Below the pieces are notes generated by a model. That model was not told where the DNA came from and ran no database searches. It saw only the letters and a list, made by a program, of their open reading frames with translations. Position numbers and translations under genes: made by a program. Shown here piece after piece: positions 3,731-46,775 of a stretch of 64,000 nt of DNA; position 1 is the first letter of the stretch; the number at the start of each line of letters is the position of its first letter. The stretch covers positions 1-64,000 of the forward strand of contig NW_020844153.1 of the NCBI RefSeq assembly GCF_003704095.1, given 5' to 3'. Origin of the DNA: Pocillopora damicornis. Its lineage: Eukaryota.

Positions 3731-4550
3731 TTTAAAGTATTTACAAAACCACACCGTTTTTCCTTTCTCAACTTTTTTGAAAGTAGCCTACAGTTTCTTA
3801 TCTGATTATCAAATCCTTCTCGCAACCAGACAGTTTTATGGGTACATATGTACATCATAACCATAACAAGTTGCACGTGGTAAATGGTAGAAGCCACCCA
3901 CGCTTTCCTAAAAGAATAGATTTTCATGAAACAAAGATTTTTATGAACAATGAAAAAGTAAAGGATTAAACATGACTTTTGGGGGTCAATGTTTTTGCAA
4001 TCGAGTGTAGTCTCAGAAAAGTTTATCGAGCCCATCGTAAATTGAGTGGTTGAGAAGCAAGGTTTCGGATTGGAAGTTATTGCTCTCTGTGAATTGAATC
4101 TTTTCAGATGCAAACAAACAGTTCAATACTGGAAGATATATTCTGGGTAGAACTGATCAATGTCAAAGACAATAAACATAGTTGGCTTCAATGCGTCATC
4201 CACACAGGAGTCATAATAAAGGATACCAGCTCCATTCAAAGGTTGCTTGTGGGGTGGTCTTCGATAGTTGGGGTTTCCCTTTACATACGAACCCACGAGG
4301 ACTTTGGCCACGAACATAAATCGAGACCTATTGGCATCTTCTTTTGCTTAGTTGTGGCTGTAGGATACTTTCACCGCAAAGTAGCTTCCTTGACCATACA
4401 AAGTAACGGTCGCAGTGCCACTTAGCCGCCAATCAAAGTTCTCTTTACAGATAGCCTCTACGGAATCTGAACTGGTTCCATGGAAAAGGCTTTTCTCGTT
4501 GACCCTCTGTTGATCACCGTTTGCTAGTTGTGTCATGTAGTCTTTTTTCC

Positions 4551-4650
4551 NNNNNNNNNNNNNNNNNNNNNNNNNNNNNNNNNNNNNNNNNNNNNNNNNN
4601 NNNNNNNNNNNNNNNNNNNNNNNNNNNNNNNNNNNNNNNNNNNNNNNNNN
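4551..4650. other. Assembly gap (100 N)
   Basis: Run of n. Confidence 1.
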
Positions 4651-5639
4651 TCAATCATTATAATCTGTGAACAAGACATCTTACCTTTTAAAGACGGTCA
4701 TTTCTTCAGGTGATATAAGTCTTTCTGGTCTTCGTTTCACCTTTCTTTTGGTACCGTATTGCATGTTTACTTGGTGCATGCCTTTCTCTGAATGAAAGAC
4801 CAAGTAGTACTCATGAGCTTTGACTTTGAAATTGAACGTATAGTCTGTCTCATTTCGCTTCAGCCCTTTAACGAAAGCTTGCTCTATCAGTTCTTGTAGA
4901 TTTCTTCCCTTAAAAACAAAATGTGAGTCGATATTAATGCGGATCGACTAACACTGTCGAGTAAGATGTAGTTAGTTCTCTTAAGGAAATGACATCTCAT
5001 TTGTTGATTTTATAGAATTCTAGTGGGTGCCATAATGCGATATTTTTAATAGAGTTTTTCAAAGTGCTCAAACAGGCAGCCATCATGCAATACTACTCGA
5101 ATTTATCTTTAATCGGTTTTACAGGAATTATGATTTAAACTTCAGATACATTTGAGAGATATTTCATAAGGGAGAAATACCAAATACTTTGTATCTTTTA
5201 AGAAGAGTTTTGCGATTACGATAGCTTGTAAAATACGAAGTGAAATCAGAAAGTAACGTCTAGCGATGAGGAGGACGATGAAAGGAAACAATATAAAGCC
5301 TGACATATGAATGTTCTGGGCTCTCTAAGATTTCAAACACAGTCTAAAGATACACTATAAAAGAACAGTTTACCAAGTGGTCCTTCTCGTACATACACCA
5401 AACGCCGCCATTATCTTCCCAGTACCATTTCCAGTTGGTGGAGAGAGTGTGACTTGGGTTTGTGGAGCAAGGTGGAGTGGCAAAGCACCTTAATTTTCCA
5501 GAGCCATAGCCTGCGGCGCAAATTCCTGCCGTTGGTTTTATTGACAAGGTCATGCTGTTAACGTCGATTGAGACTTCACATTCCCATGGTGGCAGAGTCT
5601 TTCCATCCGGCACTACGAAGTATCATAAAGTTAAATTCA

Positions 5640-5975
5640 CAAAATAACAACCATATTCTCCCGGACGCTAACAAGAACGACTAAAAACAACTCAAGCAGG
5701 TAATACGAAACATTCAGGCCATATGAAGCGAGCAAAGCCAACCATTCCAAGAATCTGTGGGCGATACTGTTCAATGCCTCAAATAGTTTTGGGATGAACA
5801 TGCGGAGATTGTCCAAAATAACAATCATACTTTTCCAGACACTAAAAAGAACGACTGAGAACAATTCAAGCAGGTAACATAAAACAGTCAGGCCGTATGA
5901 AGCGAGCAAAGCCATCCATTCTAAGAAACTGTGGACGATACTGTTCAATGCCTCGAAGACCTTCGAGATAAACCA
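5640..5975 (-). repeat. Two in-frame 174-bp (58-aa) hydrophobic repeats
   Basis: caagcagg at 5693 and 5867; the unit FEALNSI.H.FLEW.ALLASYGL.V..YLLELF.VVL.SV is repeated. Confidence 0.85.
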
Positions 5976-7084
5976 GCAGACATTCTCCATTATAACACAG
6001 ATATTATCCGAGAGTTTAATACTGGTTAATGCCCCAAAGTTCATCGAGACGTATACGCGGAGATTGTCCATAGTAAGGACCATATTCTTCCAGACGCTAA
6101 CGAGATATGTCTCAGTTAAATGAAGAAGATGTGTAAACATCGACAAAACAGAGTGTCGTGAAGGAAAGACGCTCGCATTTGTAACAGTAAAAGTCAACAA
6201 AATGGCAACAATTAATATCGCCATCATTTTTGCGTTACAAAGTCCGCTCAAACGATCCATTTTTCGAATCATGATCCAAGTTTCGGTACTGCATACGGCA
6301 AAACTGGAATCGAAGTGTCTCTTGGCCTCTTTCACACCTATGTAGACATTACTACAGATAAATCTCGTGGCATGTTTGCCCCAAAGCATCACCATTTTCA
6401 TTATGCCGCACAAAAAAAAAAAGTTGCCTAAAACTTCTCCTGTCGATTCTTAAATTTAAGGCCCAATCTAAGAAAGATATAATTAGGTAACGCAGAAAAG
6501 TAAACACGCCATTTAAAGCGAAAACCATAATGGGCTTTAAGCAATATATGGCAACTGTTATCGACCCCACAAAGATTTTCGAGATGCAATGGAAGACATA
6601 CTTAGAGGTAACCCACACGTTCATCAAAATCATATCTGCGCCTTTCACTATTACCACAAACGCAAAACATATGAGGGAACTCAAATATCCACATAACAAC
6701 CAGAAATGAGATTGTAAATAAAAAATATCGTCTCGACTGCCACTATAATCATGAACAGTATGACAGCAATTTTTATCACCGCAACTGCTGCGTTACCAAC
6801 CGAAGAATGTTGGCTCAAGCGATTCATCTTAACGTAAATGTTCCTTGCTTCGATCCAGATGATGGTACATAACGAATCAAATAGCCTCTTGGCCTGTTCA
6901 ATTGCATTTGAAACCTTGCCACGCAAGGCATTCTGTTCAACACTTCCGCAGTGTCTTTTCGAGTTGTGGTTGTATATACCAGACATTTTATATCTAAGAA
7001 TTTCGCTCAATACCAACAGCAGGATCGCATATCTTCTAAATTTCGTTTTCCGTTTCGAACGTTCCTCGTAAGTTGTAAAAGCTA

Positions 7085-8235
7085 AGCTAAGCCGGAAGTG
7101 GCGATTGCGTGATCTTTGACGAGGTGAGGTTAAAAATTTCTGTTTCGTATCATTAAATTGTGTCAAAATTCAAAATTCGAAATTTCTAGTAGAATAATAC
7201 AGGCCGGAAGTGGCTATTGTGTGATTTTTCACAAGGGTGACTCGTTCTCCTGAAAAATCACGCAATTCAGTTTCGTTTCAATAAAATGTGCCAGTAGAGA
7301 GAAATAACGGCACGGACGTATGTTTGAAACAGGAAGTTTATTTATGTTTTCCTTCACGTTTTTCACTGTTCATTTGCTTGAGATCTTAAATGATATTTTC
7401 TCTTGAGTTCTTTGGATTTTTTCTGCTTGCAGCGTTGAAACAAGGAATATTGAAATGACTGGCTGAGCGCAATGTGCACCGAAAGCAGTTGTCATCGACT
7501 TTCGGTCTCTGTCAGCGGTAAAAAAAGCTATTTTCCTTTTGGAAGGATCATATGACTAGGATGTTTGATGGCTAGCGAAGAATGCTGTTCAAAATTTAAA
7601 CTGACCCTAAAAAAATGTTTTAACCAGATTTTTCTCGTTACTATTTGTGACCAGTCTTGCTCTGCTTCCTGTCATTCAAATGTACAGTGAGGAACAGAGA
7701 AGTGAGCTACAATTGCATTTTGAAATTAGATTCAGTGCGCGTCTTTCAAACACAATACTTGGCACGTGCGTATTAGACAAAACAAACTGTGAATGACAAT
7801 ATATGATAATGTCATCTGAATTCAATTGAGTCTGATTATTTCTAAAAATAGGGAATTACTCTGCGCTATCGATGGAAGAAAAAAGTGAAAATTATTTTTT
7901 GGGCGGCTTAGGGCCAGTCTTTTATTTTGAAACCAAAACTGTGTTGGAAATAGTAAAAAGAGTTATTTTGCGACGCAAGGACAGGAAAAAAGGTATAAAT
8001 TTAAAATAAGTTTTAGTTCCCTGGAGTAGATATTTCTTCCTTGTTATTTCATTATATATTTTTTCAGCCGTAAAACAATCGAAGTTATCTCCTTCCCTCC
8101 CGAATAAAACAAAAATACGATGAAAGAAAAAAAAGAAAGAAAGTTGTATCCCCACCCTAGTCCTGTTAGGAAAGTGTTGTCGTTTTCTCGGAATTCTCGC
8201 CCTCGATTCCATGAAGTTTTCGTTTCAATGCCAAT
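7085..8235. promoter_or_regulatory. Divergent promoter region between the TM-PARP pseudogene and PARP12-like gene A, with ETS-, ISRE/IRF- and GAS-like motifs
   Basis: ccggaagtg at 7092 and 7204 (local ~112-bp duplication); cagtttcgtttca 7268-7280; aaaagtgaaa 7881-7890; ttctcggaa 8185-8193; agttttcgtttca 8215-8227. Confidence 0.5.
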
Positions 8236-11200
8236 ATGGCGGATGATGTTTTGGTTGAGAAAGTTTTCAATTTTATTTGCGGTAGTGGCGGATTTGTGGA
8301 GTTACCTCTACTTTTGAAGGATTCATCGCCTTTGAAAAACATAAAATCTAACTTGGAAGCGAAGAACTGGCTGACAAATCATGGCCGTGGCCGCTTTGTT
8401 GAGGTGAAAGATATAAATGATGAAGTCATAGGTGTTCGCGTTGAGCTGAAAAAGAAAATTTGTCAACAATATCTTGCACGGGGTTCATGCAGGAGAGCGA
8501 AGGGTTCGTGTAAATTCTGGCACATTTGTAAAAGCTTTATCGAGGGAAAGTGCGAAGGAGACTGCCGTCGTTCGCACGATTTTCTCGACAACGACAACGA
8601 AGCGAAGACCAAAGACCTAAATATCGAGAAGCACCCGAATGGCACACAACGGAACATCATTGCCTGGAGTCTACCACAGGTTTGTCAGTTGTATTTGAGA
8701 GATGAATGTAAATCGGAAAAATGTCCATATCTTCATATTTGCCCGAATGTAGTGCGACAATTGCCATGCAGTTGTAGTTTATCGCATAATTTGACTGAAC
8801 TTAACAACAAGAAAATACTGAAGCAGTATGACCTTGTGCCACATCAGTCGATGAAAACTGCTTTTGTTTGTAGCAGTATTTTAATCATGAACGAGCAGAG
8901 GTATTTTGGCAAAGGTAAATTCACAAGTGATGATACAACCGTTAAAAAGGCCTCACTTAAAAATAACGCAAACGAAAACAGCTCACAGCTTGGGGCAAGC
9001 CAAGAGCCGAACTCGAGTGGAACAAAAGGTTTTCATGTGAGCTCAAAATGCAAAGAGTTTCTTAATGATGATATGGAGGCGAGTTCGAAGAAGAATGAAC
9101 CGAAACCCGGTCACTCGAAGGCAAAGAAAGAGCAAAAACAGAAGCGTATACCGAAATACGTCAACAATTTGGCGAGTTGTGCAGATGCTTCAGCAAGATC
9201 TCAGAAAAATCCCGGGTTTCTAAATATACACGAAGAGGAAGAAGAAGGCCACTCGAACTCATCTTCAGAAGACAACAAACCCTATTCTAAAAGTTTCCTC
9301 TCTGCTAATCAAGGTGAATCGATTCATCAGATTCCAGAGTCGAAAATAAGTCACGAAAAGACTGGTAACGAAGTCAAATTTCGTCATCCTAAACTCGTGT
9401 CAAATAAGAAACCTGAAGCGGATCCGTGTACCTCAAATGGCGCAGCCAAAGGTGGTGTTGTTGATGATGACCCGCCTGTTTTGCCCGTTGATGATATCGG
9501 AAACGATTTTGTGAAGAATTGGGTCCTGGGTGTTGATGATTTTTCCTCTGAGTCCAGTCAAAGCCTTGGAAACTCTCAAATTGAAGAAAAACCAGCGGAA
9601 CGCAAGCGAAAGTCATCCATATCAAGTTCATGCAGCTCTGTTCCGAATCCACAAAAGAATACACCCTCTAAGAAGGCTGTCTTTGACTGCATTCTGAAAG
9701 AATACAATGGTACTGTCTCCTTTCTTGATATCTCGAAAAGAAAAGACTTGTTTCCTGAAGGATGTGGAGATATTGCAGCGTGGTTTATAGCAAGGAAAGA
9801 AAGCTTTCTGCTTAGGGAAAGTAAAGACGGAACACTGAAAGTGGACGTTCTTTGTAAACGAGCAAAATTATGTTTTAACCAGGATCATTGCTCCAAAGTG
9901 GGTTGCCCTTATCTACACGTGTGCCGAGATTACATCGCTGGTTTTTGTAGATTTGGCGGTAGATGCCAAAGAAACCATAGTTTTGAATACGATGAAAGCA
10001 GAATGCACATTTCTAAACTTAAATTATCTGGGTTTAGCGAAGAACAGCTGCGTAAACTCGTTCAGCTGTCAATACCCCAAGTATGTCTGGACTATAATGA
10101 AGGACACTGTGTACTCGGAGAGAGTTGTTGGCAAATGCATATTTGCAAGGATATGATAAAGAAGAAGTGTTCAGATGGAGTCATTTGCAGTCTCAAGCAT
10201 GAAGAAGCATTGTTGACGGCTCAAGCAAACACTGTGCTAAGTAGATATGGCCTGAAAGTCTGGGATGACAACGTTCAACCGATTTTGCGAACCCTTCTCA
10301 TCTGCGAGAGGAAATCTTCAGTTGACTCTACACCCCTTTTAAAAGACACTGTTTTAACAGCAGCTAGTCTGACATCGTCGAGCAGTGCAGTGGGCAGCCG
10401 AAAAGAGAAAAACCCGAGTGGTGCCATTCCTTATTCACTTGCATCCGTTTCTGTAGCCAGAACACCCAGCACTGTTTCAACGCCAAGTGGTTCGAGGACG
10501 TCAGAGGGAGCAGCTGGCGGCACAAAAGTGAGCGATCAGAATAGTAGTCCAATTCCTTTTACAGGTGCCGTTGTGAACAACAGTGAAGCATCCGAACGAA
10601 AAGTCTTTGAGTGCTTGTGCAAAGAATACAACTGCTCAGTTTCGTTTTCAGTGATTTCTAAACGCACTGATTTGTTCACTACCGGATTCAAAGACGTGGA
10701 GTCTTGGTTTCGAAGAAGAAATGGGAGCTTTTTGATCTTAGAAAACCCGGATGGGGCAATTACAGAAGTAAGTGCCTTTTCCGCAAAGGTTCGACTCTGC
10801 TTCAGTTACAACGCCCCCTATGGAACTTGTACAAAAGACAACTGCTCATTCCTGCACGTCTGCAGAGATTATATCACTGACTCCTGCGCCAACGGAGCAA
10901 CATGCCCACGGAACCATCAATTCCGCAACGAGAAGGATAAGGCTTTGCTGTCTAAGATCAACCTCGACAAGTTCACAGACGAGCAACTTCGCCGGCTTGT
11001 GCTGTTTTCGTCACCACTGATTTGCGTAGAGTACAACGATGGTATTTGTGATCGTGGCGATGCTTGTCCTAGAATTCACATGTGTGGCAACCACTTGAAA
11101 AAGTGCTCCCGAGAAAGACATGGTTGTATCTTAGAGCATGAATCCGCCATGACCACTGACCACACCAAAGCAGTTCTCGAGCGTTATCGTATGGACTACT

Positions 11201-14200
11201 TAAAACCAGGCGCAGCAAAGAAGGCTATTTTGCTTTTTGACGACTTGGCACAAAGTAGAGAAGCAGGTATGTTTCACTAAGAAAGCATACTGGTTTCAGA
11301 TTGTGCTCATGTATCCAGCAATATTTGTGATAAAGTATAGGTACAAAATTAAAATTGCTTTGATTTTATTCGGGAAGCTTTTTTTTTAATTTTATTTTTA
11401 TTTTATTTTATAAACTAGGGTTTTAAAACTAATGTCTTTGGTCATAATTGGACAATACAAAGGTGTTTTGTTAGGATTAATCGATGATTCTGTGGCACTA
11501 TCAGTCCCTAAATATGCTCAATTTCGTTTGCTCTCCCTATAGAGGTAAATGAAAAGTGATCCTTTTTTTTCCAAGGATAACGAAAAACGTGTCTTTCTCC
11601 CTCAGTCACACTGCTGTTTTTATCGTCGTCAGGTCATGTTCACACTGATCAACCAGATGCATATATCTGTTCAGATTTCCTTCTGGGAAAGTGTAAAAAG
11701 GGCATCAAGTGTTCTGAGCACCACTGCTCGTTGCCTTACCACTGGCAATACAGAGTCGAGAATAAAGGAGTCTGGAAGAGTTTTAGTGAGACTGACAATG
11801 AGAAGGTGGAGAAACTTTACTGTGACGCAATGATGAATGATTGCTCAGCCAATGGCTTCAAGCTGTCTTTCAAAAGGTAAGCCAAGGAGAGTCGTGTTTG
11901 AATACAGAGTATTTTGCAGAGGCAAACATAAATTGTTTATACAAGCTCAAGTCTAAAATTATGGGTTTACAAGCTCACTTCTTTGTAACCTCGATATTCC
12001 CTTATTCGTTGCTATCTGTTCTGGTAAATTGTGTTGTAATAATTTCTCATGATTAATTTATATGTATGGTTCTTTTTGAACCTCATTTATTCACAAGACC
12101 TTTGTAGACAAGCCCCTCAAGTTTAGATTACGATTGATGATCTGGTTTAGATCATCTTTCAGAAAGTGTTCTATTCTTGATGCAAATTCCTTATTAAAAG
12201 AAGCCCGCAATGAGGAATTTAACTTGATAAATAATGTACCCAAAATTTCATGATACTGAATTGGCACACAGATCGTAGTTAACTTAAAAATCGATTTTTT
12301 TAAGTCATGGATTCCCTCTCTTGGATGAAGAGTATACCGTGCAGTTCCTGTTTGAAAATGAGCTGATGCTTGTGCAGACAGATTTTGAAGTCGTCGCAGA
12401 CATTAGGCGGCTGTCCACAGAACCCTTCATCAATAATCCCGTTAATCCTTTGGCTGCTGTGTGGACTTGGTACTGGAAGGACGAAAATGGCATGTGGCTC
12501 GCGTATGGCTCAGACTACCTGGTAAGATTTTATGTGAGGTGCCATTTCTGGGTAATTGTTACAAACATGTTTTAAAGAAGAAATAACAAGTAAAGGTAGT
12601 AATTAGCCATGCTTTTTAAGCCTCATGTTATGTTAGGAAACTGTTAAGTCATGGACGTGTTAATAAGCAAACGTTATTTTGTTCAAGTCATTTGAAAAAA
12701 AAAATGAAAACAGTTAAACAAGCAGTAAACACAATCAGAAATCAGTAGATTAATTCATTGGAAATTTTTGTATATTTTCAGGGGAATGATCTTCAGCGAC
12801 CCATAGAAGAGGCATTCTTATCCACCCCATACTGCTATAAGTTTAAAATTGCCGAGCAAGACTATGTACTGCATTTCCTTAAAATGGAACAAGAAAACTT
12901 GAGGTATGGCACTAAACGACAAGTAAGGAGAAGACCTGGAGAATTTAGATCAGGCGCAGACATCCTGGAGATTCGAAGGTAATTTCAAGTGACAGTCAAA
13001 ACTTTCCGCAACGGCCACTTCTGAGGCAAAGAAATTTAGAAAGGGTGCAACACAGCACATTTTTTGTAAGAAGGGTCGAACTACATTTCTGAAGTTGTTA
13101 ACATGTTTATTTCAGCATATTAATACGTAACACACTCAAAGTAATGTACTGAAAAGAAAGGAAACATTAAACACCAAAGGATTGAAGCACACTGTTTTAT
13201 CATATTTTAAATACTTACTGCATGAAGAGAGCGATATGACCTTTCGGGGAGTAAGCCATGTTGCCCTGGTCAGGTGAGGGGTCAAACCTAGAGCTATCAA
13301 TCTGGAGAATGTGGCAAAGCCAGGAACGCCAGGATATTGGAATATCTCGGAGCACTAGACTGTATCGAAACAGTCGCAGCTTGACTTAACAAAATGCTCT
13401 TTCTGGCAAAACGGAGTGCAAAATGGTGCGATAGTAGTGGTGGAACTCCCCAAAAAACTAGGGAAGTTTGGGTCAGGTTACAGATAACTTTAAAATTTTG
13501 GTGGGTACATTAATTGCGCTTGAGTGTTTTTTTTTTTTTATGTCTGTCTTGCTTAAGTATAAGTATTTTCAATTTTTTTCGCCCAAGGTCATCCAGGAAG
13601 GGAAAACCGATTACAAATGTATCAAATACTGAAAGGCCTAGCAACTGGGCTTCTATGCCATCTACTAAGCAGTACACACGTGTCACGTTAAGCACTGTAT
13701 CATCTGAGTACAAAGAAGTGGAGAGGTTATTTAAAAGTTCAATCAAAAAAAGGGTCGTTATCCGTAGAATCCAGCGTGTGCAAAACTCTTTCATGTGGGG
13801 AAAGTATCAAAGGTATTATTTATTTATTTATATATATGTAGGAAATCTTTGTTTCGATTTTTCCGTCTTACAGTGCTCGATACATAAAAATAGAGCGTGA
13901 TATGTACTGTGTTAGGGGGAAAAAACAAGGAGACTACGCTTTCATCCCGAAAAGCCTGTTTAGTTATTAAAATCTCTCTTCAGGGGATTTTAAAATCCCC
14001 TGAAAAGTGATTTGAGTCAAAATCAACTTTTTGTGCTATATTATTTCAACGTTTTCGTAAATAATAGAAAAACTATTCACCTCAGTGTTGGTGGATTGTT
14101 TGAAACATTCTTATGTTGAAACATACTCTATTCTTCCGTGGAAATGGTCGTAATTGGGTATACGTAAAACGCTCTTTACCTGAAGCCTTGTTTTTGTTTG

Positions 14201-15018
14201 TTTTTGAAAGGAAAAAGGAATATTTGTTGACGATCAAGACAGGCGGTCACAAGTTTTCCCCCTTGAACGAAAAGAGGTTGTTCCACGGAACCAGCCCCGA
14301 TGCTGTAGAGGCCATTTGTAAACAAAACTTTGACTGGCGCTTAAACGGAAAGAACGCCACTGTTTATGGTGAAGGAAGTTATTTCGCTGTAAATGCCTCT
14401 TACAGCGATGCTTATGCAAAGAAAGACGCAAATTCGTCTCAATTCATATTCTTAGTCAAAGTCCTTGTTGGAACTTACACCAAAGGCGACTCCAGCTATC
14501 GAAGACCGCCTCCAAAACAACCATCCAATCCTTCGAGTGACCTGTACGACTCTTGTGTGGACGACGAGTACAATCCAACCATATTTGTGGTGTTTGACAC
14601 CGATCAGTTCTATCCAGAGTACATCATTGAGTATTCTGATGAAAGTAGAAGGTATTCCGGAGCTCACGGAGCTGGCCCTCAGACAGGAGCGTATGCAGTA
14701 CCTTCTTATAGCCGAGCTGCCCCATCTACCAGCTCCTTTAATCCCACAAGTGGTTATTACTCATCTAGTAGTGTGGCATCGAGTAGTTATGGCTCAGCCT
14801 CTAACAGCTCGTCTAGTACACCGTACCGCAGCACAGGTACAAGCTACTATTCAGGTACGGCGAGCTCTCATAATACAACATATTCATCGCACATCTCAAG
14901 CACAGGAACATCAAGAAATTATTCTTCATCAACGAATACTTCTAATGTGTCACACCACAGTTCAACTCCTAGCAGCTCCTCGAAATCTTCCAAAGACAAC
15001 AAGTGCTTGGTAATGTGA
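8236..15018 (+). CDS. PARP12: PARP12/ZAP(ZC3HAV1)-like protein A, ~1573 aa: 3x(HTH+4 CCCH) - CCCH - WWE-WWE - mono-ART (H-Y-I) - Ser-rich tail - CaaX
   Basis: Exons 8236-11266, 11633-11876, 12305-12521, 12782-12978, 13588-13812, 14211-15018; all introns GT-AG, phases 1,2,0,2,2, total 4722 nt in frame. Motifs: CCCH fingers, LPYHWQY, WTWYWKDENGMW, LFHGT, NFDWR, YGEGSYFA, YDSCVD, TIFVVF, QFYPEY; ends KCLVM*. Confidence 0.9.
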
Positions 15019-16194
15019 CTTCAAAGAAGGAGAGAGTGTGTCTGTGTTTCGTACTAATGATGGATAATGCTATATTTGTTGAAGTAGGTTTTTGTAAAGG
15101 AGTTTCTGAATCTAGGAGCACTAACTGCAGACGTAAATTTCTTCGAAAAGTTCACCGCAGTTTTGAAGCATACACGTAATTGATTTTAGGACTGTTATGT
15201 GGAAGTTACTTATGCTTTTCGGTGTCTGTCTTTATGACGTATGATTCAAATAGTTTCACATGTGGTGATGTAACTTCCTTTCCTACTAAGCTTTTGAACA
15301 ATTCTCTAAGTATGTAAACGGTTCAGTCGTATGATATGTGGATTTGTTTCTAGGTGCCGTTTTAAAAATTCTTTATCGTTCACCAATGCCACTAGTGAAC
15401 GTGGATCGAAAATTTGATGTGCAGATAGTGTCTTTGTAAAATGCAGCGGAGACAGCAACCTCCTGCACTATGGATATTTGATCGCCCGATAGAAAAAAGT
15501 CCTGTTCGAAAACACGAAAAAAACAAGACAAAATTCAAACACACACTGAAGTGCAAAAAAAAAAAAATAAATAAATAAATAGAAACAAAGGCAAACGAGA
15601 AAAAACTCTGAAAACGAGAACAAACTCAAGTTTAGAAGCAAAACAAAAAGTTAACAAACGAGACAAAACAAAAGAAGAGAACCGCAGAAAGCTAGGAGTT
15701 AAACTCTTTAGAAGAGATAGGTGGGTTTGGGCTATTAGTTTAATCTCATTATATTCTTTATTTTTTTTTTCTTAGAAATTACGTAAAAATGCTTTACAGT
15801 TAAATGAATAGACGGGGTCGGGCACCTGTCTTTATCCCTGTTATCGTCAATTTAAATCATGTAATGATTCATGCGAGGGGGCAAGAAATAAGCAATATCT
15901 CACAAGTAGCAGAGTGTAGGGAACATGAGCAAACAATACTTCTACGTCAGTGAATCATCGCATGATCTAAACTAGATGGTAGCAAGGATCTAAACACGTT
16001 ACCCAAGTACATATATCATTATTCACTGAGAGACCTCCCTGAATCGAAAAAGCTCTCTAGTCATATAGACTTATCGCTTAACTTGTGATGGTTTAAGCGG
16101 TTAGAAATACGGTTGTTAATGATCGTTTCGTGAGTGACAAGCTAAGACCAGCGTTAAGCTCAGGTACTTTATTCTTCAGAAAATGGAAACATGA

Positions 16195-18352: not shown

Positions 18353-19240
18353 ATGTCGAAAATTTCCCCTTGGCGACGAAATGGAGGAAATCACAGCTCC
18401 GAAAGCGAAGAGGAATCTTCTGAAACATTTTTAGACATCAATTTGAAATTCACTTCGAATGGCAATTCTTCGGGAAAGATCGTAGGATTCCCTCCCATCA
18501 CTGATGAATTGGATAAGAAAGGAAGCACACCTTGTATATCGTTTATGGACGAAGATTTAATGATAGATCACACAAAGAAAATGCCAGAACATATGAAACA
18601 GCGATGGAGAAGGGCTGCAATATGGGTGACGGTGTTCTGCATTGTTGTATCTTTTAGTATAACAATTGCTTCGTTTCGAGCCGCCGGGGCGTACGACAGC
18701 TCTTCTGCTCTCGCGCTCGCATTTGATTGTGCTAATGCTTTCTTATGCTCCTTCGTTGTTCTGTGGAGATTCAAGACAGCAAAGAACGGCAGTTTGGGGT
18801 ATAAAAGAGAGAGAATATCCTGTCTTGTGTTTGCGACTTCTTTTATTGTCAGCGGAACTTTGACTGCGGGATTATCAATCAAAAGAATTGTCGAGAAAGA
18901 TCATCCCACCAAAACGTTTTGCATCGTGGCTGTTCTAAGCGTTGGTTGCTTTCTGTACACTTTGCTAGCCGTGATGCAGTGTTACGTTTCTAAGAAACTT
19001 TTAAGTTCAGCGATGCTCGGGAGCTGTATAGACTCCGTGTTATCGGCTGCACTGATGTTTGGCCTTCTTATTAGTAACTGCGCCTTTTTACTTGTTCATA
19101 CAGACTTGTGGTATCTAGACCATTCCATGGCAATTTTAGTTGCACTAGTGACAATACTTTGCGGCTTGCAAATTCTGGTGGAAGTGTTGTTTTATAAGAA
19201 ACTTCCAATAGATATGATGCCTTGTAAGGAATGCTATTAG
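18353..19240 (+). CDS. TMEM163: TMEM163-like (CDF/ZnT-related cation transporter), intronless CDS, 295 aa
   Basis: Six hydrophobic segments. WRRAAIWV...SSSALALAFD....VVLWRF...RERISC...KKLLSSAM...WYLDHSMAILV parallels TMEM163 (YRKKALWVS..SASAFGFAFD..IVLWRY..REYIAC..WYLDGSIGVL) as recalled. Confidence 0.8.
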   Translation: MSKISPWRRNGGNHSSESEEESSETFLDINLKFTSNGNSSGKIVGFPPITDELDKKGSTPCISFMDEDLMIDHTKKMPEHMKQRWRRAAIWVTVFCIVVSFSITIASFRAAGAYDSSSALALAFDCANAFLCSFVVLWRFKTAKNGSLGYKRERISCLVFATSFIVSGTLTAGLSIKRIVEKDHPTKTFCIVAVLSVGCFLYTLLAVMQCYVSKKLLSSAMLGSCIDSVLSAALMFGLLISNCAFLLVHTDLWYLDHSMAILVALVTILCGLQILVEVLFYKKLPIDMMPCKECY

Positions 19241-20431: not shown

Positions 20432-23340
20432 ATGGAGTACGATAATGTGGTCCACAAAGTGTTTAACTTTGTCTACGATTCTGGCGGTTTCGCCGAATTG
20501 GATTAAATTTTTTAGAGCATCCGTCACCATTAGCATTTAAAGGGACAGAGGGAAGAGTGATAAGATGGTTGAAGAGGCAAGTGGTCTTGCAGTTGTAAAA
20601 GATCGCAATGGTGAAACTGCTGGTGCGCATACTGATCTAAGGAAGAAAATGTGCCAGGAGTATGTAATCAAAGGGTCATGTACAAGAGGGCAAGAAAGGT
20701 GTAAGTTTTGGCATCTCTGCAAAAGTTTTATTGACGGAAATTGTGACGGAGACTGTAAATGCTCATTCAATTTTTTGTACAAGGTTAGCAAGAAAAACAC
20801 AGAAAAGTTCAACCTCGAAAAGAGAACAAATGACGCGATAAAAAGCGTGGTAGCCTGGAGTCTTCCTCAGGTTTACTTGTTGTATTTAAGAACAGATTGT
20901 AAATCAAATAAGTGCCCATATCTTCACATCTGCCCCAAGGCAATTCGAGAGTCGCCTTGTAAATAAGCCACGTCACATAATGTGACCGATTTTCATAATG
21001 TACTAGTCCTCAGACAGTACGATCTGAAACCGCATAAGGGGATGAGTATCGATTTTTTCCGCTGCAGTATTTTAGTCCTAAAAGAACAAAAGCGTATCAA
21101 GGGGTGCAAATACTCAAGTGTTGCTCCCATTAAAAAGGGAAGCGGTAGTCATGCCCAAATTTCAATCGTCACGGCATCACCTCCAAGTGTAGCGGGCGCA
21201 CGTTGCTCAGGTAACGCGACTGCAAAGAGTTCGCCAAGTGACTCTTTGACTGGCGCTCAACGAAGTAACACTAAAAATGCAACAAAATGGTCGAAAAGAA
21301 AAACAAAGCAGTAAACAACCTAAAAAAGTGTCACATCACTTGGTAAAATCATCCGTTCCACTTGTTAACAACCTGGCCAAACATTCCCGTTCAATGCTGA
21401 ATAATAGGTCCCTCAATTTTCTATACATTCCATCTGAAGACAAGGTTGAATTGCCGATGGATTCGACATCAGATGAAAATGTCAATACCAGGATGTGTCC
21501 AAACCCAATCAAGTACACCGATAAACCAAACACTCCACCCAGCGATCACAATAATCTTCCAAAGTCTTCACAAAAATCCACCAACCATTCTCCAACCATT
21601 GACGCAAACTTGGAAGATAAAAACAAAGTCGAAAACATTTTTGAAGCTGGTTCCAACGCAGATGAAAAACCATCAAGTAGCAAAAGTTGCCAGGTGAGAT
21701 ACCTTGGTAGCATTTCCAGCTCACGTATTGCTGTCACCCACTTCGAACCATCAGAGTTAAAGGTTTTCGAGTGTCTGTGCAAAGAGTACCTCTAATCGGC
21801 CCCTTTTTCTATCATTTGTAAATGGACGGATCTCTACCCTCCCGAGCATTCTGATATCGAGCTGTGGTTTCGTGAGAACAAAGGAAGTTTTTCGATAAAG
21901 GAAGATGATTAGGGAATGATTTCAGAAGTTTAAGCCTTCTCTTCAAGGGCATGTATCTGTCATGGTTATACCTGCAATGTAACTTGTTCGAATGAAAGCT
22001 GCTCGTACATGCACGTTTGCAAAGATTACGTCACTGATTCGTGTTCCAATGGGGCAACTTGTCACTGGAATCACAGCTTTCACAACGGAAAAGACCGGGT
22101 ATGGCTGTCGAGAATTAAGCTAGATCAGTTTATTGAGGAAGAGCTTCGTTGGCTCGTGTTGACATCGACACCACAGATTTGCGCAGAGTACAACAATGGA
22201 ATTTGTCAGGATGGGTCCTCGTGCACCAGAATCCATACGTGCATCGCCTACTTACTGAGGCGCTGTAAAGCATCTGGCTGCGGTCTTAGCCATGAAGAGA
22301 CCATGAGGAGTGAGCACAATAGGGCAGTGCTTGACTGGTATCAGGTGACCGATTTGGATTCAGGCTATCTCGACCAGCTCATTCTGATGAATGAAGAACC
22401 GGTTAAAAAAGGCGACACAGCTAATTCAAAAGTGCGAATTTGCAATTCAGTTTTTCCTCACGACTCAAGGGATTCCCACACGGTTGCTGCAAGTCCCTAA
22501 GCCCAAAGCCAAATTATCACAAGCAGTGCTGTCCCAGTCTCAAATATTTTCAAGAGCAGCACCCTGGATGCTGAAGAAATCCAACCGCCACTGTGGTCAC
22601 GGGTCCAGGTATCCTTTGTCTCACTTTTACAGACGAGGCAAGGTTACCAGCAGCCACTTTTCCTTCAATGAAGTTCTAACCGTCAACAAATCTTCCAGAA
22701 CAAAAAGTGCAAGGGAACTCTTGGCCAGGGAAAGGTTTTTCAAGTCCCCATGTATCAGAACCGTGCACCTCTGTTAAGGGGGGAAATGATTCATAGAGAG
22801 ATGGCCAAAGACCCTGTGATACAAGTTCGGTTGTCTCATAAAAAATTATCACGGAAGGCTCCCTGTTATCAAAACTCTTTGTTTCATGGGCAGCTGTTCA
22901 AAACGAGAGAGTTACCACCAACGCTCCTTCAGGCAGATATCCCCCATATCATTGCAGCTGAGTTGCAGTCACGGAGAGACTCTGTTACTCGTGACAAGTC
23001 AGGGTGTTCAACCAAGTTTAACGGGGAAAGCGATCATTCTGATGAACTAACTACACAAGGAAGAACCTGGAGCTCATCTTGGCTGTCAATAACCCGTAAT
23101 GACGATGATGCATTCACACAGTCCAGTTATTAAGCGAGGACTATGACTGCCATAAATATACCCATTTGTGCAGATCGTGCGTTTAGCTCTTCAAGCCGTT
23201 CAACTTTCACCAACCACTTATTAGTCTTGAAGGCGCATGTTCCAAGCTGTTCCTGTCCAAGAAAATTTTCCCCGGGAAAGATGAAAATTATAACAGCCAT
23301 CATCATATCTATGATCATCTGTATGATTACAATCATTTGA
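20432..23340 (+). pseudogene. Decayed ZAP-like CCCH gene (two HTH+4xCCCH modules, no WWE/PARP exons seen), possible C-terminal TM
   Basis: Starts MEYDNVVHKVFNFVYDSGGFAELD* at 20432. Fragments KKMCQEY..GSC.RG...CKFWHLCKSFI and SELKVFECLCKEY..MHVCKDYVTDSCSNGATC align with modules 1 and 3 of gene A, with multiple stops and frameshifts. Confidence 0.85.
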
Positions 23341-26918: not shown

Positions 26919-29900
26919 TCAACAGACCACCTTAGATTTGGTCTTGAACTTTATCAAGAAAGTCGGGTAATACTGATCCGAGGCAAACAGCACAAAAATG
27001 GTGGGCTTGGTGACGTTATCCACACAAGAGTCATAACGCTGTTTCTTGGCTTCGGAGTCACTCCTTAACGGTGGTCGTGGTAAGGTTGGCTCACCTTTGG
27101 CATATGACCCCACAAGAACCTCGCACAAAAACATGTACCGGAAGGACTCGGAGTCTTGCCTGCAGTAGAGATTACTCAAGGCCGCCTCCTCTGTGAAGTA
27201 GGCTCCTTTACCGAACTGGGCAGCTCGGTCCTCTTCTAGAGCACGACAGTCGATGTTCTCCTCACATATCGTGTCTACAACTTGGGGATCAACTCCGTGG
27301 AAGAGAAGTTTTTCATTCATAGGATTGTCTTTGACCGAGGCCTTCTTCTCCATCCATTCTTTCTTACTAAGAGGAACAGCACAAAATTTCAGCTTCATTA
27401 TTGGGAATGAAATTTCAACCTAAATTCTGTTTTGATTTGAAGTGAGTGAATTGCAAGTTTTAGCAATAATTTTTTTCTTATTGCCGTTATAATTGCGTTG
27501 TTGAAGTTTTTATTTTAACCAGAGTTCAGTTCTTGTTTCGTTTACCTTAAGGTAATTTTCTTAAACAATAAGCCAAGAGGCCAGAACTGATTAAAAGACG
27601 CAGGCAGCAGTATTCACGAGATGTATGACTTTATGCGTAAAGTAGTCAACTGCTTAACCCAATTCATCTCTGGCTGCGGGCTAGACATTTCCTACTTTCC
27701 TAGTTCACTACAAATGTATGTGTCAAATGCAACCTCAGTGACTTCAAAGTCTGTTGGGATTCATCAAGAGCAAGAGTTACACTGGTGCGTATGACTGTAA
27801 TACCTAGAAAAAACCTCGAAGAGGATTAACTACCAAAAGAAGAAATAACACGTTCAATACATACTCTGCATACTTCTTCCACAAAAACGGATTTTGAACT
27901 CGCTCAACGGAGATGATAGTTGCCTTGTTTTCGGACATGGTTTGGCGAAACAGGCTTTCGGCACATTTGAATTCATCTGAGTTGCTAGTCAGAGGAACAC
28001 GCATGAACTCTCGGTCTTCAGGAACACGTTCCCAGTGAGAAGGAGTGTGACCATGTGATGAAGCTGAGGTAGACTGCCCTGGTGTTGCGGGTTGCAATGG
28101 GATTGGTAGTTCAAGGGGACTGAAGAATATAAAAAAAAACACGAAGTTCGCTTAACCTTATAGTGCTTTTCCTCGCGAATTAAAGCTCATACTGTTCATT
28201 TGATTTTTTCAGTTCCTGGCCTTCTTTAGAAAAGTGATAATGATAATGACATAAAATAAACTCGTGTTTGTACAGAGTCTCAAAGCAGATACAACAAAAG
28301 CTAGCTTACAACATATACCCATACAATATTCGTTTGACTACGATGTATACACTCTAGATACCAGTAAACAAAAACTCAAACAGCAAAGTAAAAATCTCAC
28401 TGGAGAAACGAAAACACTAATATACATTTATACATACAAGAAAACAAAAGAAATAAACAAACAGAACACCACCCGAAGTGTTCGGCCTACCCAAGTGCGC
28501 TTACTGTGATTGGTCAAAATAACAATCACCCCACCAATTTGATGCATGCAAAAACAAAAATATATTCCTCGTCAACACGCGTTTCCCACGTGTTTCTACC
28601 TCATGACTTTCTGTATTGTAAAATAAGCCTTGCGCATAAGTTGCCTTCGTTGTTGCTACGAGCGCATTTTACGTTTTAAATGACCCCCTGAGATGGACGA
28701 TAGGGTCATCATGCCACAAAATAACCTTGTAGAAATCAAGGTGACTGGATCTAACATATCTTTAGAGGTAAGCATTCACAGTGTTAGTTTTTACCTCTGC
28801 AGCCTCTCTATTTCCGACTTAGACCTAAACAAAGGCCTTCTTCTCACTTTTGTAACTTTAATGGGTGGTTTCAAGTTCTGCTGGTACATGGATGTTTTGT
28901 GAAAAAACAACTTATGGTCCTCTCCTCCTCTTTTAAATTTATGGAATGATCTTCCTTTGGTGAACGACTCTTCTATTCGCTTCTGTTTGGAGACATCATG
29001 GCACGAAAAAAAGGAAAATAGAAAAAAATAAGCCTTCAGAAGATACCACCGCCGAAATGAGGAAGTGAACTCCCCTTTTTTCCCGAAATAACGACAAACA
29101 TAAAACTTCGGTATCTAAGAATCAATAAATTATAATAAAACCTGCCATTGCATGGAAAAGAAGGGGACATTTCCTGAATATGGAAAATGCTCGAAGCTCG
29201 TTAATAAATACAAAAACATTAAATAAACAACAATATCAAAGAAAAGTTATGCTCACAATAAATTTGTCCCTAAAATGGATGACAAAAGCAAAAAAATAAA
29301 AAAAAAATTATGCATATATATAAATATATACATATACATATAAATATACATACATATAGGCTGCGGTTACTTTAGGGCAGTTTCAGAACCAAAACTGTCT
29401 CCAGATGTGGATATTTATATCATCTTACTTGCAGAGCTTCATAAATCACTCACCAAATTCTCCAAAAATGTTTTTTTTACTTTTCAGACCTAAGATAAAA
29501 TTTGATTTGCTCATTGGCCTAAAAGAATGCAGTGAATTGTCAAGCAACTCTCAGATGAGAAGAGAGGACCCCTTTTCTGTTACCAAGCCAATGATAGTCT
29601 GTGTTCTTGATATTAATTTTTTTTTCCTCTGTTTTTACCCAAAAGAGTAGGAATGATCAGCAATTATCTTACAGACATACCATAAGCTCAGAATCATACT
29701 CAGTCCAACTGCTGTCCTGATCTGACAGGTACCAAACCCATGTAGTCAATAGAGAATGATCTGTAAGCGAGCTCACTGACTTAGTGGACAGACGTCTCAG
29801 CTCCACAGATCCAAATCCTGTCACAGCTTTCATTTCATCAAAGTTGATCTTGATGTAACCTTCTCCAGGATCAATACTGCAGCAACAAAAGGGAAAGTTA

Positions 29901-32900
29901 ACTATCACACAGAAGTGAAACCAAACATTATGATTATCAATCATATTTAGATCAGCGTTAACTTATAATATAAAGATCTTTCCAAGCTTAAAACTGGAGC
30001 TTCAGTTAGTTAATTTAACAGCCCTTCCTTCATCAAAACTCCTCACTGTCGGTTGCAGAGTGTATTCTGGGAAATCAGTCATAAGTTATGAAGAGAGGGT
30101 GGGTATACCAGGGATAAGGGCTGGCTACCCTTCTTTATTTAACAAAATAAATATATTCTTCGGGTTCACTAGACAAGAAAAGTGATTAAAGCTGTAATTT
30201 CCTATTGGTGAAACAAGTTGTACTTACAGTGCAGTTGGAGGAGGTGCAACTTGAATGTGTCCAATTTCTGTCTCTGTAACATCAACAGTGCAGAACTGTC
30301 TCTCAATGTCTTCACTATCATTTTCGGTGAATGCCTTCCATCCATCTGCTTGCTCATTGTCAAGGTATCTATACTGCCACATGTATGGCATGTTGTGATG
30401 AAAGTACTCACACAATTGAGCCTTGCCACAATGACCCAATAGGAATTCCAGGCAGATGTACTGGGGGCTATGGAAGTTTTGCACCTCTGTCTTTGGATTC
30501 ATCACTTGTTTCTTTTGAGGTTGTGCAGCTACAGAATTAACAAAGAGATTGTTCAGTAATAAATTTAGAACTGAATTTTCATTTATGTTCTTAGAGGCCT
30601 GTGTATGAACAGGGTTAATTATTAAATATATAAAATAAAATCAAGAATACCAAACATTCCCAAACCGCTGGAATCAGAGTCATTAGAATCCTGCCATGAA
30701 CAAATACATGGTAAAGGATGATTTTGGGCGTTAGATGATGAAATCTCATCAATTTCTTTGCTAAAAGTATGGTTATTTCATAAGATTTGATGTCTCTGAC
30801 ATTTGTCTAACATCATAGTACAGTATCATCTCATTTCTTTGACACAATGATTTGCATCTGTAAAATAGATACATGCAAGTGAACAAGCTCAATAAAAAAA
30901 GATCCATAAACAACCCCATGCTTACAAATTGAGTTAGAAATGACCATGGCCAGGTTCAAAACACAAATGACAAAATTTCTTGGTCAGATGTGTACAGATA
31001 ATGAGATAGTGTATGTAACCATAAAAAACTAACTTGGGTAATGGTACTTCAAGCAATTTCCAGTGCAGCCCAGTACCAAAGGTACAATACTGATTACACT
31101 TCTTACCAGCTTCTTGTTCCTCTTTGGTTTCCATGGTCAATGGTTGCCTCTGTCCACGCACCAGAATGGCTCGAAAGACAGCTTGCACTGGAACAGTGGT
31201 CAAATTGTACTTCTCTAGAACTAACCGGGTATGGGGTTCTTTGAGACTTGCCTCATGGTTAAGAGGGCAGTTGGCTCCATTTTTGCAATTGCCCATTACA
31301 TAATGCTTGCAGACATGAATTGCATAGCAACGTAGACCTCTCCTGCATCTAGAAGATTTCTTGTTGTAATCAAGACAAACTTCAGGAACAGAGGCAGAAA
31401 TCAGGACACGTAGCTGCTCATCTGAGAAACAGCCAAGCTTCCGCCTTTTAGTGATGTTTTTGTTGTGAGGGCTCTTCAGATTATGGCTATGGCTGTATCT
31501 ACATTTCTTCCCTAACGGACAGGCACCATTAGCAAGATAATGCTTGCAGACATGGTAACGGAAACACTTTGGATCCTTACAGCCATTTTTGCCCATCAAG
31601 TAGCGAAAACAGATGCGTGCTTTAGGGGTGCATGCTCTTACTGATTCAATTCCCCCTTCACTGTTCTCAATGATCATAAACCTGCTTGAGTTTTCCCTGA
31701 ACCATGCAGCAATATCAATAGCATCTAGAGGAAACAGGTTGTAGCATTGGGATATTACAGCAAAAGGCACTTCACCATTGTGTTCTTTACAAATGTATTG
31801 AAAAACAGAGTTTACAGCTTCTTTTTCCAATTGGCTTTCTGCACTGTGCTGTTCAGATGGGTCAAAAGAGGTACTGTCCTGAGACAGTGCTCCTGCAACA
31901 TTTGTTGGGGACAGGTTGAAGAGCAAATCATCCACTTGAGAAAGTGGCTCAAAAGTTGAGAAGTCATCCTGTGAACCAAATGTATCTTCAAGATCTTGAA
32001 ATCCATCTTCTAACTCATCAGAAAAATTGATCAAGTTTCCTTCAGCAACTTCACTTATGCCCATTCCAGAAACCTGGTTCTGGTAAGTCATCCCACTGTT
32101 GGATTGTGTTTGCTTCCTCAGACCTTGAACAGATGTATTCCCTGATGTGTCTACATGCTTTGTGCTTGGACTAGGCTGATTGGAAAATTTTGAAACTGAG
32201 TAAAGATCAGGTTTGTCTGGCAAATCTTCATTATCTGAGGTTGAATCTGAACCTTCCTCTTCAACATCATCTGCAAGTGATTCTTCACATGGTTCACCTG
32301 CTTGATTTGCCTTTTTCTTCTGTCTTCGTCGTTGCCTTCTCCTCTTCTTCAGCCTCTCATCTGGACACCTTTTCACTTGTGAATCCAGATTGTTATCATC
32401 TTTTAGGGCTACAGGCAAGGACATCAAAGATGCTGGCTGTGATGTTAAAGAAGAACATGCTGAGGAAAGCTTGGCTTCTGTGGGACCTTTTTGCCTCTTT
32501 GGGAACAAGATGTTGCTCTGCATTATGATTATTTTGGTTCTCTGAGGGTCTAAATCATATTGCTTTAGAATTGAGGAATTATGGTCATCATTTAAAGCGT
32601 GTGTCAAGTTACAACTGCACGAGTTTTCTCCAAAAGCAAGGGGGCATAAATGTAAATGTCGGCAGTCATTACTGTAGTTGCATCTACTATTCACATATGG
32701 GAGACAAATTCGGGGAAAACTGTGTGAAATTATGTTCTTTAAAGTTCCATTTGGGCAACGCTCAATCCCCAATCTCTGTATCTTCTTTATGTTACCCTCA
32801 TCATGGAAGTCATGTGAGAGACCACAGCCTCCCTGACAAGTATCCTCAAGGTAACCTTTGCAGATATGCCAATACTGACAAGTGTTGAGAGATTTACAAT

Positions 32901-34056
32901 AACCTTTCATATACTGCAAACATAATTTTTTCCTTGAATTTACTCGAACACCGAGAATATCACCATTTTGGTTCTCTAGCAAAATGATTTTCTGTCCCTG
33001 TTCTGGGTGAGTGTTTACTTGAAGCCAAATCTTTGCATCAACCTCAGACTTTGAAAACTTCCCTACCAATGGCGAGGGTGGTTGTAATAGGTCCCGCAAT
33101 GAAGAGTACCCTCCTTTACTACATATGAAATTAAAAACTTTCATAAACAGAGGATCAGCATCAGGAGGTGCAGTGTCATGATGCATTTCTGGTTTGGCTT
33201 GAGCAGGTGCTTTTGGTTCAGGTTTAGAGAAGTTTTGGCATAAACGCGCCAGACTAACAGCTCCAGGTTTACCCTGATGTGAGGGGTGCCTCTGTGTAAT
33301 ATTATCAGGCTTATTAACTCTTGGCGTGGGTTGCCTGCTGAAGCTTGGATCATTGATAGCCCTTCCTTCAAAAGATTTCTGCTGCTTCGGGATCAGAATG
33401 TTACAACGAACGACATCCATGTCTGACGTTCGGGGAGGCCTGAACCCATACTGTTTCAGCAAGCTTCTGTTGTGCGGACTAGTGAAATCGTGATACCGAC
33501 TACATCCACAGGCTGTTGCCCGCACCGCATTAACACAAATATGAAGATACGGACAATTTACAGAGAGGCAACCATTTTTTGAATACATAAGACAAACCTG
33601 CAGAAAGCTTCCGGCGACAATAGTTTTCAAAGGCCCAGTCGCTTTTCCTTCAAAACCCAATTCCACCGTTTTCGCTTTGTTGTCTTCATCGTGAAAATCA
33701 TGTGATCGGCCACAGTTTCCTTTACAAGTTCCCTCAAGGAACTCCCTACATAAGTGCCAGAATTTACATCTACTTCCTGATTTACAAGACTCTTCGGTGG
33801 AGTACTTTAAACACATTTGTTTGGCCAAGTCGATTCGCACGCCGACAGCTTCATCACGTTGATTTCTTACCAAAACCAATCTGTTGTTTGGGTCCAAATC
33901 TTTCTGAGTTTGAAACCATAAAATCAGCTCAGTCTCAGTAGATTTCTTTGCCAAAGGCGAGGGATTTTTAAGTAAATGCGATAGTTCTAAAACTCCGCCA
34001 CTTCCACTGATGAAATTGAATACTTTTACAACTGAGACATCGCTCGATACTGCCAT
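26919..34056 (-). CDS. PARP12: PARP12/ZAP-like protein B, ~1445 aa: 3x(HTH+4 CCCH) - CCCH - WWE-WWE - mono-ART (H-Y-I)
   Basis: Exons 34056-31107, 30528-30228, 29876-29681, 28982-28795, 28119-27865, 27366-26919; GT-AG, the same phases (1,2,0,2,2) as gene A, 4338 nt in frame. Motifs MPYMWQY, TTWVWY, LFHGV, FGKGAYF, YDSCVD, TIFVLF, QYYP. Confidence 0.9.
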
Positions 34057-42984: not shown

Positions 42985-43397
42985 AAAATTGGAAGAAAGG
43001 CTATTGCCACTGGTGACAAATTTGCTCTTCGCCTGCGCGATTTGCGATCGTTAGAAACAATTTACTTTGTACATGTCACAAGAACTCGCCTGACGATTTA
43101 TTCTCATTGGATGGCATTAACTGGAATAATGAACTCAAATTGTTTTATATTGTTTTTGACTAATAATGAAATAATTTCTGTGACGTCGCAGCTTAATTAT
43201 AGACGGAGAAAACCCAAAGAACTTAATATGACCTCTTGATGAGTACACTCATCCGATCAAAATGCACAACATGTGTAAATTGGCCAGAGTTCTGTTGGAG
43301 TATGCTTCCTAATTCACGTGCGCGCGCTGTGCTGGTGATACAATTATGACGAAATTATTGAGCAGAGACAAGCCGCCGTCAAACAACTAAGAAAAGA

Positions 43398-46770: not shown

Positions 46771-46775
46771 TTCAC

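Follow-up and report, generated by a model that had tools for sequence, protein, structure and literature searches.

Is the CaaX box at the end of a coral zinc-finger PARP a real feature of the protein, and does it share its origin with the one that anchors the antiviral protein ZAP-L to membranes? The question is raised by gene A, a stony-coral gene on the forward strand of the 64,000-nucleotide stretch of Pocillopora damicornis DNA analysed here (contig NW_020844153.1, positions 1 to 64,000; the window in what follows). An initial annotation had called this gene ZAP-like and regarded its prenylated, catalytically active product as either ancestral or convergent. The explanation favoured here, which we consider likely, is that gene A represents the ZnF-WWE-WWE-PARP group (PARP7/12/13) in a cnidarian and that its CaaX box is an ancient, selected, predicted prenylation signal that was lost in vertebrate PARP7.

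The window DNA is animal and intron-bearing, its top protein matches come from stony corals, and the last exon of a paralog neighbouring gene A is 91% identical to a Stylophora protein. Gene A has a 1573-aa open frame assembled from six exons with GT..AG introns. Exon 1 (8236-11266) carries the start codon and three tandem wHTH and CCCH modules with their spacers, as indicated by the open reading frame, Pfam zf-CCCH_PARP12, three profile matches and an RNA joint at its donor. The gene model and RNA, including joints for exon 2, place a further CCCH finger (the ZnF5 equivalent, at residue 1023) and the start of the first WWE domain in exon 2 (11633-11876), the end of the first and the start of the second WWE domain in exon 3 (12305-12521), the remainder of the second in exon 4 (12782-12978), and a linker with the first part of the PARP domain in exon 5 (13588-13812). 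The coding part of exon 6 (14211-15018), backed by Pfam PARP (E 1.2e-21) and RNA contigs, holds the catalytic core, tail, CaaX box and stop. The CCCH-WWE-WWE unit thus comes from exons 2-4, whereas the PARP domain is encoded by exons 5-6.

The RNA check of gene A drew on four of 19 listed runs, one per study from four studies. Joints across introns 1, 3 and 4 occur in all four runs and across intron 2 in three, and intron 5, though it has no row in the joint table, is contiguous in contig coordinates in all four. Exon 6 continues as 3' UTR to at least 16131 (contigs 14207-16131, 14207-15498 and 14207-15768), the passage from last exon through the stop into the 3' UTR being unbroken in three runs and the stop being spanned by a separate contig (14770-15546) in the fourth. 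The contigs of the four runs have no listed indels in 14211-15018 and reveal no alternative last exon of gene A, and they lend no support to a different last exon, the finding that the initial annotation had named as speaking against its CaaX claim. A donor-like site at 14651 was considered as an alternative splice and rejected, as continuous RNA contigs cross it. Two contigs of run X11 depart from the window at 14624, in frame and with similar residues, and then run into a different tail; since the loose end continues in frame as similar sequence, it fits a paralog rather than a splice form, and the departure probably marks a further paralog outside the window.

Positions 14995-15018 of the forward strand translate as DNKCLVM-stop, so that the 1573-aa product ends SKSSKDNKCLVM, with the CaaX box CLVM at 15004-15015 and a TGA stop at 15016-15018. 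The CaaX ending of the initial annotation is thereby upheld on an RNA-backed last exon, and the tail of about 120 residues rich in Ser, Thr and Tyr that it described after the ART domain proved to be 127 aa long (14635-15015), with 45 Ser, 14 Thr and 11 Tyr (55% Ser/Thr/Tyr). The tail is predicted to be disordered from its composition and from an AlphaFold model of the last exon, a weak model (mean pLDDT 58) in which residues 160-258 fall below pLDDT 50 and contain neither helix nor strand, and which matches PARP12 with high rmsd and is uninformative on the openness of the NAD+ pocket. CLVM fits the FTase-substrate pattern of a terminal C-a1-a2-X with aliphatic a2 and M, S, Q, A or C as X. Human FTase fully farnesylates CSIM, CAIM, CLIM and CIIM, as well as CVIM, geranylgeranylation being possible as an alternative (PMC11152559), so the earlier statement that a CaaX box with X=M is an FTase substrate holds for these Met-ending neighbours, CLVM itself being absent from the portion of that source available to us; none of the literature matches listed concerns CLVM. 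A weakly basic patch precedes the Cys (14980-15003; three Lys, net +2 in the 10 preceding residues), where six coral relatives have four to six Lys or Arg and a net charge of +2 to +5, and the weakness of this patch in gene A means that membrane binding may be loose.

Upstream of the tail, profile matches and alignment delimit module 1 (aa 1-225, 8236-8910), which is homologous to the N-terminal domain of ZAP and PARP12, module 2 (aa 473-700, 9652-10335) and module 3 (aa 780-1005, 10573-11250). The residues that form the RNA groove and CpG pocket of ZAP are V72, Y108, F144, H176 and R189 (PMC8568172, consulted in part). No module of gene A has the identical residue at any of these five positions, and in all three modules Y108 is replaced by Arg and F144 falls within a four-residue deletion, the comparison having been made by eye against the mammalian ZAP row P0210 with numbering counted by hand. 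In the catalytic domain, the triad residues His1330 (14284-14286), Tyr1362 (14380-14382) and Ile1429 (14581-14583), the last of the mono-ADP-ribosyltransferase type in place of Glu, line up with the motifs of human PARP12 chain 2pqf (E 1.8e-37), which bears out the earlier observation that the protein keeps H-Y-I.

The breadth of the motif was gauged with the pattern C-x-[VILM]-[MSAQCL]-end, which is matched by three of the 1237 stop-ended frames of at least 30 aa in the window, gene A included, and which is expected at a rate of 0.18% from composition and 0.13% from internal 4-mers (0.13-0.24% overall). Such an end was found in 168 of 395 fetched relatives against about 0.2% expected, in 74 of the 120 matches listed for one homologue search, in 64 of 150 representatives at 50% identity among the matches listed for a profile built from family members, in 27 of the 120 matches listed for a further search, and in 10 of the 19 proteins of the last homologue search, counts that show spread rather than independent events because of near-duplicate bird and salmonid isoforms and the family-built profile. 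CaaX carriers comprise anthozoans, a hydrozoan, molluscs, a brachiopod, a starfish, an acorn worm, amphioxus, fish and tetrapods: among cnidarians Oculina, Porites, Montipora, Acropora, Nematostella, Actinostola and Clytia; among lophotrochozoans Lingula, Mytilus, Pinctada, Mactra, Haliotis and Babylonia; among invertebrate deuterostomes Acanthaster, Ptychodera and Branchiostoma; and among vertebrates Polypterus (bichir), Cyprinus and other carps, salmonids, killifish, frogs, reptiles including alligator, and birds. Across tails of 9 to 688 aa the motif stays at the very end. Closely similar catalytic domains can differ in this respect, as in Acropora, where P0014 and P0019/P0022 contrast in having or lacking tail and CaaX, showing recent loss or duplication.

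The initial annotation had presented the union of CaaX box and H-Y-I triad as a contrast to the catalytically inactive ZAP-L. The combination is present; it is not special, as 150 of 335 proteins aligned over the catalytic domain have a CaaX box and 143 of these 150 keep H-Y-[IVLM]. Chicken and alligator ZAP have been described as likely active, in a paper that also notes cnidarian homologues and, in the portion available to us, does not mention prenylation (PMC8102003), and the combination seen in gene A is thus already implied for bird and reptile ZAP.

The placement of gene A was sought with trees of the shared ZnF-WWE-WWE-PARP region (profile columns 255-692, tail excluded). The gene matches the family profile over positions 19-778, with the CCCH finger, two WWE domains and PARP domain in order, and has both the domain order and the mono-ART H-Y-[I/L/V] triad of the group; Pfam PARP and zf-CCCH_PARP12 are found on its exons and Pfam WWE on its orthologues. 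The first tree retained 148 rows after clustering (226 of 258 proteins aligned, 198 with enough coverage), the second 129 rows after further thinning and removal of one long branch, the third, a quick tree, 67 rows hand-picked from 335, and the final careful tree 68 rows, with one crinoid row taken out and two relatives of the neighbouring gene C added. All are unrooted and built without a PARP14/15/10 outgroup, rooting on anthozoans being an assumption. One split is common to all of them. Its support is 98 in the quick trees and rises to 100/98 in the careful one, and either half of the alignment suffices to recover it (85 and 89). On side I are all the cnidarian rows sampled, together with vertebrate PARP7 and one class of proteins from amphioxus, acorn worms, brachiopods and molluscs. 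Vertebrate PARP12/ZAP and PARP11 belong to side II, as do a second invertebrate class, crustaceans and echinoderms.

Gene A lies on the same side as TIPARP, the branching within side I being without resolution in the 68-row tree; in none of the four trees does it fall in the lungfish and tetrapod ZAP clade, nor does it group with vertebrate PARP12/ZAP to the exclusion of PARP7 (100/98). The split therefore makes gene A neither a one-to-one PARP12 orthologue nor ZAP, from which it also differs in having Arg at the CpG contact Y108 and lacking F144. Side II contains no cnidarian rows, and the simplest reading of this is that the gene was duplicated in the bilaterian stem; since the trees are unrooted, side I may be paraphyletic and gene A may be co-orthologous to all of PARP7/11/12/13. 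Uniting anthozoans and class-I invertebrates with vertebrate PARP12/ZAP fails the AU test by a small margin (p 0.042, for groups chosen after seeing the trees). A single clade of all CaaX carriers was also tried and is rejected (AU p 7e-37).

Among the closest known systems, tetrapod ZAP-L (PARP13/ZC3HAV1) shares with gene A the wHTH-CCCH module, ZnF-WWE-WWE, PARP domain and C-terminal CaaX box, and bird and reptile ZAP also an intact-looking triad; ZAP-L, however, has one N-terminal module where gene A has three with altered Y108 and F144, the human ZAP triad is Y-Y-V rather than H-Y-I, most tetrapod ZAP tails measure about 9-12 aa, and the two proteins stand on opposite sides of the tree. 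Tetrapod PARP12 has H-Y-I and the same domain order and gives the best PDB match by sequence and fold, whereas human PARP12 has one N-terminal module, lacks a CaaX box according to the part of PMC8568172 consulted, and belongs to side II. The CaaX-bearing PARP12 paralogs of fishes and hagfish (zebrafish NP_001314726, reedfish, bowfin, gar, lungfish and hagfish) resemble gene A in having a Ser/Thr/Pro-rich tail with a CaaX end, and H-Y-I in the four records read whole, but have one N-terminal module, and the sampled ray-finned members are on side II. PARP7/TIPARP resembles gene A in its H-Y-I and its position on side I in all trees built, while the rows sampled have no N-terminal modules, tail or CaaX. 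Nematostella XP_001636351.2 (P0260, and P0133 as isoform) has three modules, ZnF-WWE-WWE-PARP, a 137-aa tail and CSVM, and belongs to the anthozoan group of gene A (84/90, not starred); unlike gene A it has Arg for the triad His, and for this reason may be a pseudo-enzyme, in parallel to mammalian ZAP.

The tail and motif cannot be aligned across phyla, and homology of the CaaX box is consequently judged solely by mapping it on the trees. Two-state models were fitted to the 129-row tree under five rootings, with a strict coding (61 rows with and 68 without CaaX) and a lenient one in which 20 doubtful rows, long-tailed and non-CaaX, were set as unknown. A gain-only history was tried and is far worse in all fits under both codings. 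Every printed fit gives the motif a probability of at least 0.85 at the anthozoan node and at least 0.88 at the lophotrochozoan node, while the vertebrate nodes swing from 0 to 1 across fits. Weighted parsimony was applied to the 68-row tree with anthozoans as the root, and for all gain costs tested above 1 it favours a root that carries CaaX. One origin requires 16 losses, and a gain-only history nine gains, or 11 once hagfish and lungfish are included as state-only tips. The CaaX box of cnidarians and of one bilaterian paralog class thus probably dates from the cnidarian-bilaterian ancestor; it would already have stood in the gene of that ancestor, would have been kept in one paralog class of anthozoans, hydrozoans, brachiopods, molluscs, acorn worms and amphioxus, and would have been lost in vertebrate PARP7 and several paralogs. 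Of the two outcomes posed at the outset, ancestral or convergent, the former is accordingly the probable one for these groups, and trees, fits and parsimony leave the link to ZAP undecided.

That link can be read in two main ways. The stronger form of the favoured explanation is a single origin with unbroken descent, in which the coral and ZAP-L boxes are one inherited motif that was lost many times, in PARP7, PARP11, tetrapod PARP12, sharks, lampreys, lungfish ZAP and the second invertebrate class; we regard it as roughly an even bet, if a shade under. Under strict coding the single-origin model leads slightly, its margin over a free model whose root lacks CaaX being 0.4-2.0 log units across the five rootings, and in parsimony its 16 losses tie for the best score when a gain costs four times a loss (three times with the hagfish and lungfish tips). 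The occurrence of the motif on the PARP12/ZAP side, in starfish, hagfish, ray-finned fish, paralogs of lungfish and tetrapod ZAP, also speaks for it, as does the ease of loss among close relatives exemplified by the Acropora paralogs. Against it, lenient coding makes repeated gain better than a single origin by 4.5-5.5 log units, and amphioxus, crustaceans, brittle star, acorn worm, molluscs and lamprey must have lost the box in parallel from their genes on the PARP12/ZAP side, where 15 of 16 invertebrate rows in the final tree are without CaaX. Two echinoderm rows on that side, P0188 (crinoid, ending CICM) and P0124 (starfish, ending CSIQ), sit on long branches, and their placement affects the ancestral-state result.

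With just under an even chance in our estimation, the PARP12/ZAP side instead lost the box in the bilaterian stem and later regained it, either in a single event at the base of the vertebrates or on several occasions (hagfish, ray-finned fish, lungfish, tetrapod ZAP, starfish), so that the coral and ZAP motifs are parallel, the proposed driver being that membrane targeting is favoured in antiviral proteins. The well-supported split, found by each alignment half, and the marginal, post hoc rejection of a grouping of anthozoans and class-I invertebrates with vertebrate PARP12/ZAP both point this way, as do the lenient likelihood fits, the best parsimony score at gain costs up to 3, and the ready convergence of four residues under selection. 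A matching end, on the other hand, arises at only about 0.2% per random terminus, whereas one stop suffices for loss; hagfish, zebrafish, bowfin and gar have the invertebrate-type layout of a Ser/Thr/Pro-rich tail with CaaX; and the gain-only model fares far worse in all fits.

A third explanation is that unequal crossing-over or conversion between tandem paralogs transferred the last exon, tail and CaaX included, so that its history departs from that of the remaining gene. It draws on the location of catalytic core, tail and CaaX in a single exon and on the presence in the window of four family loci spread over no more than 31 kb; separate trees for the WWE and catalytic regions nevertheless yield the same split, and the catalytic tree brings no better fit of the motif (10 changes against 8), which leaves the explanation improbable. 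That the box arose by chance or reflects a faulty gene model, and is unused, is very improbable indeed, given RNA contigs that cross the stop and nearest coral relatives that end in CSVM, CLVM, CSIM, CVIS or CLVS although their tails differ.

Returning to gene A as a cnidarian family member with an ancient prenylation signal, a working model of its product can be proposed. By analogy with CaaX biochemistry and the work on ZAP-L, FTase would add a farnesyl group to Cys1570, with GGTase-I as a fallback, after which LVM would be clipped and the Cys methylated. The lipid and the nearby lysines would hold the protein reversibly on the cytosolic faces of membranes, with the disordered tail as a tether. 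RNA or partner proteins are the probable ligands of the three zinc-finger modules, which are without the CpG pocket of ZAP, and judging from the family the ZnF-WWE-WWE unit would bind ADP-ribose chains and the H-Y-I domain would mono-ADP-ribosylate targets. The setting is most likely innate antiviral defence, a role suggested by the cGAMP induction of the three-module CSVM relative of Nematostella, XP_001636351.2, which is among the most cGAMP-induced genes according to the part of PMC11784840 consulted. Anchor, catalysis and CpG sensing, intertwined in human ZAP, come apart in a coral protein of this kind.

The literature search found one evolutionary study that maps the CaaX box (PMC12204182), and it places the gain in early tetrapod ZAP, as the last step in the origin of ZAP. 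In the supplementary alignment of that study, a CaaX end is present in at least 10 of 41 non-tetrapod PARP12/ZAP records (three from lungfish, two each from bowfin and reedfish, and one each from hagfish, gar and zebrafish), four of the 10 having been read whole and six assigned from the lines before the next header, with only the last alignment lines seen for most other records. The zebrafish record NP_001314726 ends in CVIS, those of bowfin and gar in CTIL and that of hagfish in CSLQ, and these records, read whole, all have H-Y-I and a Ser/Thr/Pro-rich tail. Lungfish ZAP itself is without CaaX in the same alignment, which is consistent with a gain in early tetrapods and also with a loss. Table S3 of the study may record the fish and hagfish motifs; no paper pointing out the CaaX of the fish PARP12 paralogs was found.

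Other sources, each consulted in part, add to this picture. The CaaX Cys is required for the membrane location and activity of ZAP-L, and the published conservation logo of the motif spans mammals and birds (PMC8568172). The architecture has been described as ancient and two Nematostella genes as strongly cGAMP-induced, the CaaX box going unmentioned in the portion available to us (PMC11784840), and the accessible part of PMC9888277 adds nothing on the origin. No report of a family CaaX box outside tetrapods, in invertebrates or fish, was found in a search that lay mostly outside subscription papers, and both the reach of the motif across invertebrates and fishes and a three-module cnidarian type with predicted prenylation appear to be unreported. 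Within the family the CaaX box is not confined to land vertebrates and is not a tetrapod invention. Given that it occurs in cnidarians, lophotrochozoans, ambulacrarians and amphioxus and, among vertebrates, in hagfish, lungfish and ray-finned fish as well, membrane targeting either predates CpG recognition, which would mean by hundreds of millions of years, or evolved repeatedly, and either outcome alters the stepwise model of ZAP. Zebrafish with its CVIS paralog and Nematostella with its cGAMP-induced CSVM gene are tractable animals for testing this.

Tentatively, and with somewhat less than even confidence, lipid anchoring may be taken further as the founding state of the whole PARP7/12/13 family, the cnidarian-bilaterian ancestor then possessing a membrane-bound zinc-finger PARP that was farnesylated, inducible and catalytically active. 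If so, ZAP-L would have kept the anchor and PARP7, PARP11 and tetrapod PARP12 would have lost it, and animals would repeatedly have kept anchored and unanchored copies side by side, as in coral genes A and C, the mollusc and amphioxus classes, the fish paralogs, ZAP and PARP12, and ZAP-L and ZAP-S. The sea-anemone copy would then have independently lost its catalytic His and kept the anchor, like mammalian ZAP.

The remaining family loci differ in their state of preservation. Gene C (26919-34176, reverse strand) is identified by search matches and the tree as a paralog with zinc-finger modules, WWE and PARP and without tail or CaaX; it lies on the same tree side as gene A and ends in a basic stretch and a terminal Cys, like Stylophora and Oculina relatives with three modules and H-Y-I. 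Gene B (20432-23133, forward strand) is, in translation, a remnant of gene-A-like zinc-finger modules with stops and frame changes, no WWE or PARP match follows its modules before 26800, and it is probably a pseudogene. Gene D (4126-5622, reverse strand), a WWE-PARP paralog without tail or CaaX, has an in-frame stop at 4348-4350 within the catalytic exon and adjoins an assembly gap (4551-4650), and is either a pseudogene or an assembly error. Beside the PARP cluster stands a single 780-aa ORF (38664-41006, reverse strand), which we take to resemble MPEG1/perforin-2, an innate-immunity gene. Further forward-strand ORFs at 18353-19240, 42178-43050, 43362-45375, 46767-47687, 52013-52999 and 57472-62740 presumably resemble a cation-efflux-type membrane protein, an F-box protein, casein kinase 1, two single-exon GPCRs and trypsin-like proteases, and hydrophobic, partly repetitive ORFs occupy 5637-7169 on the reverse strand, upstream of gene D.
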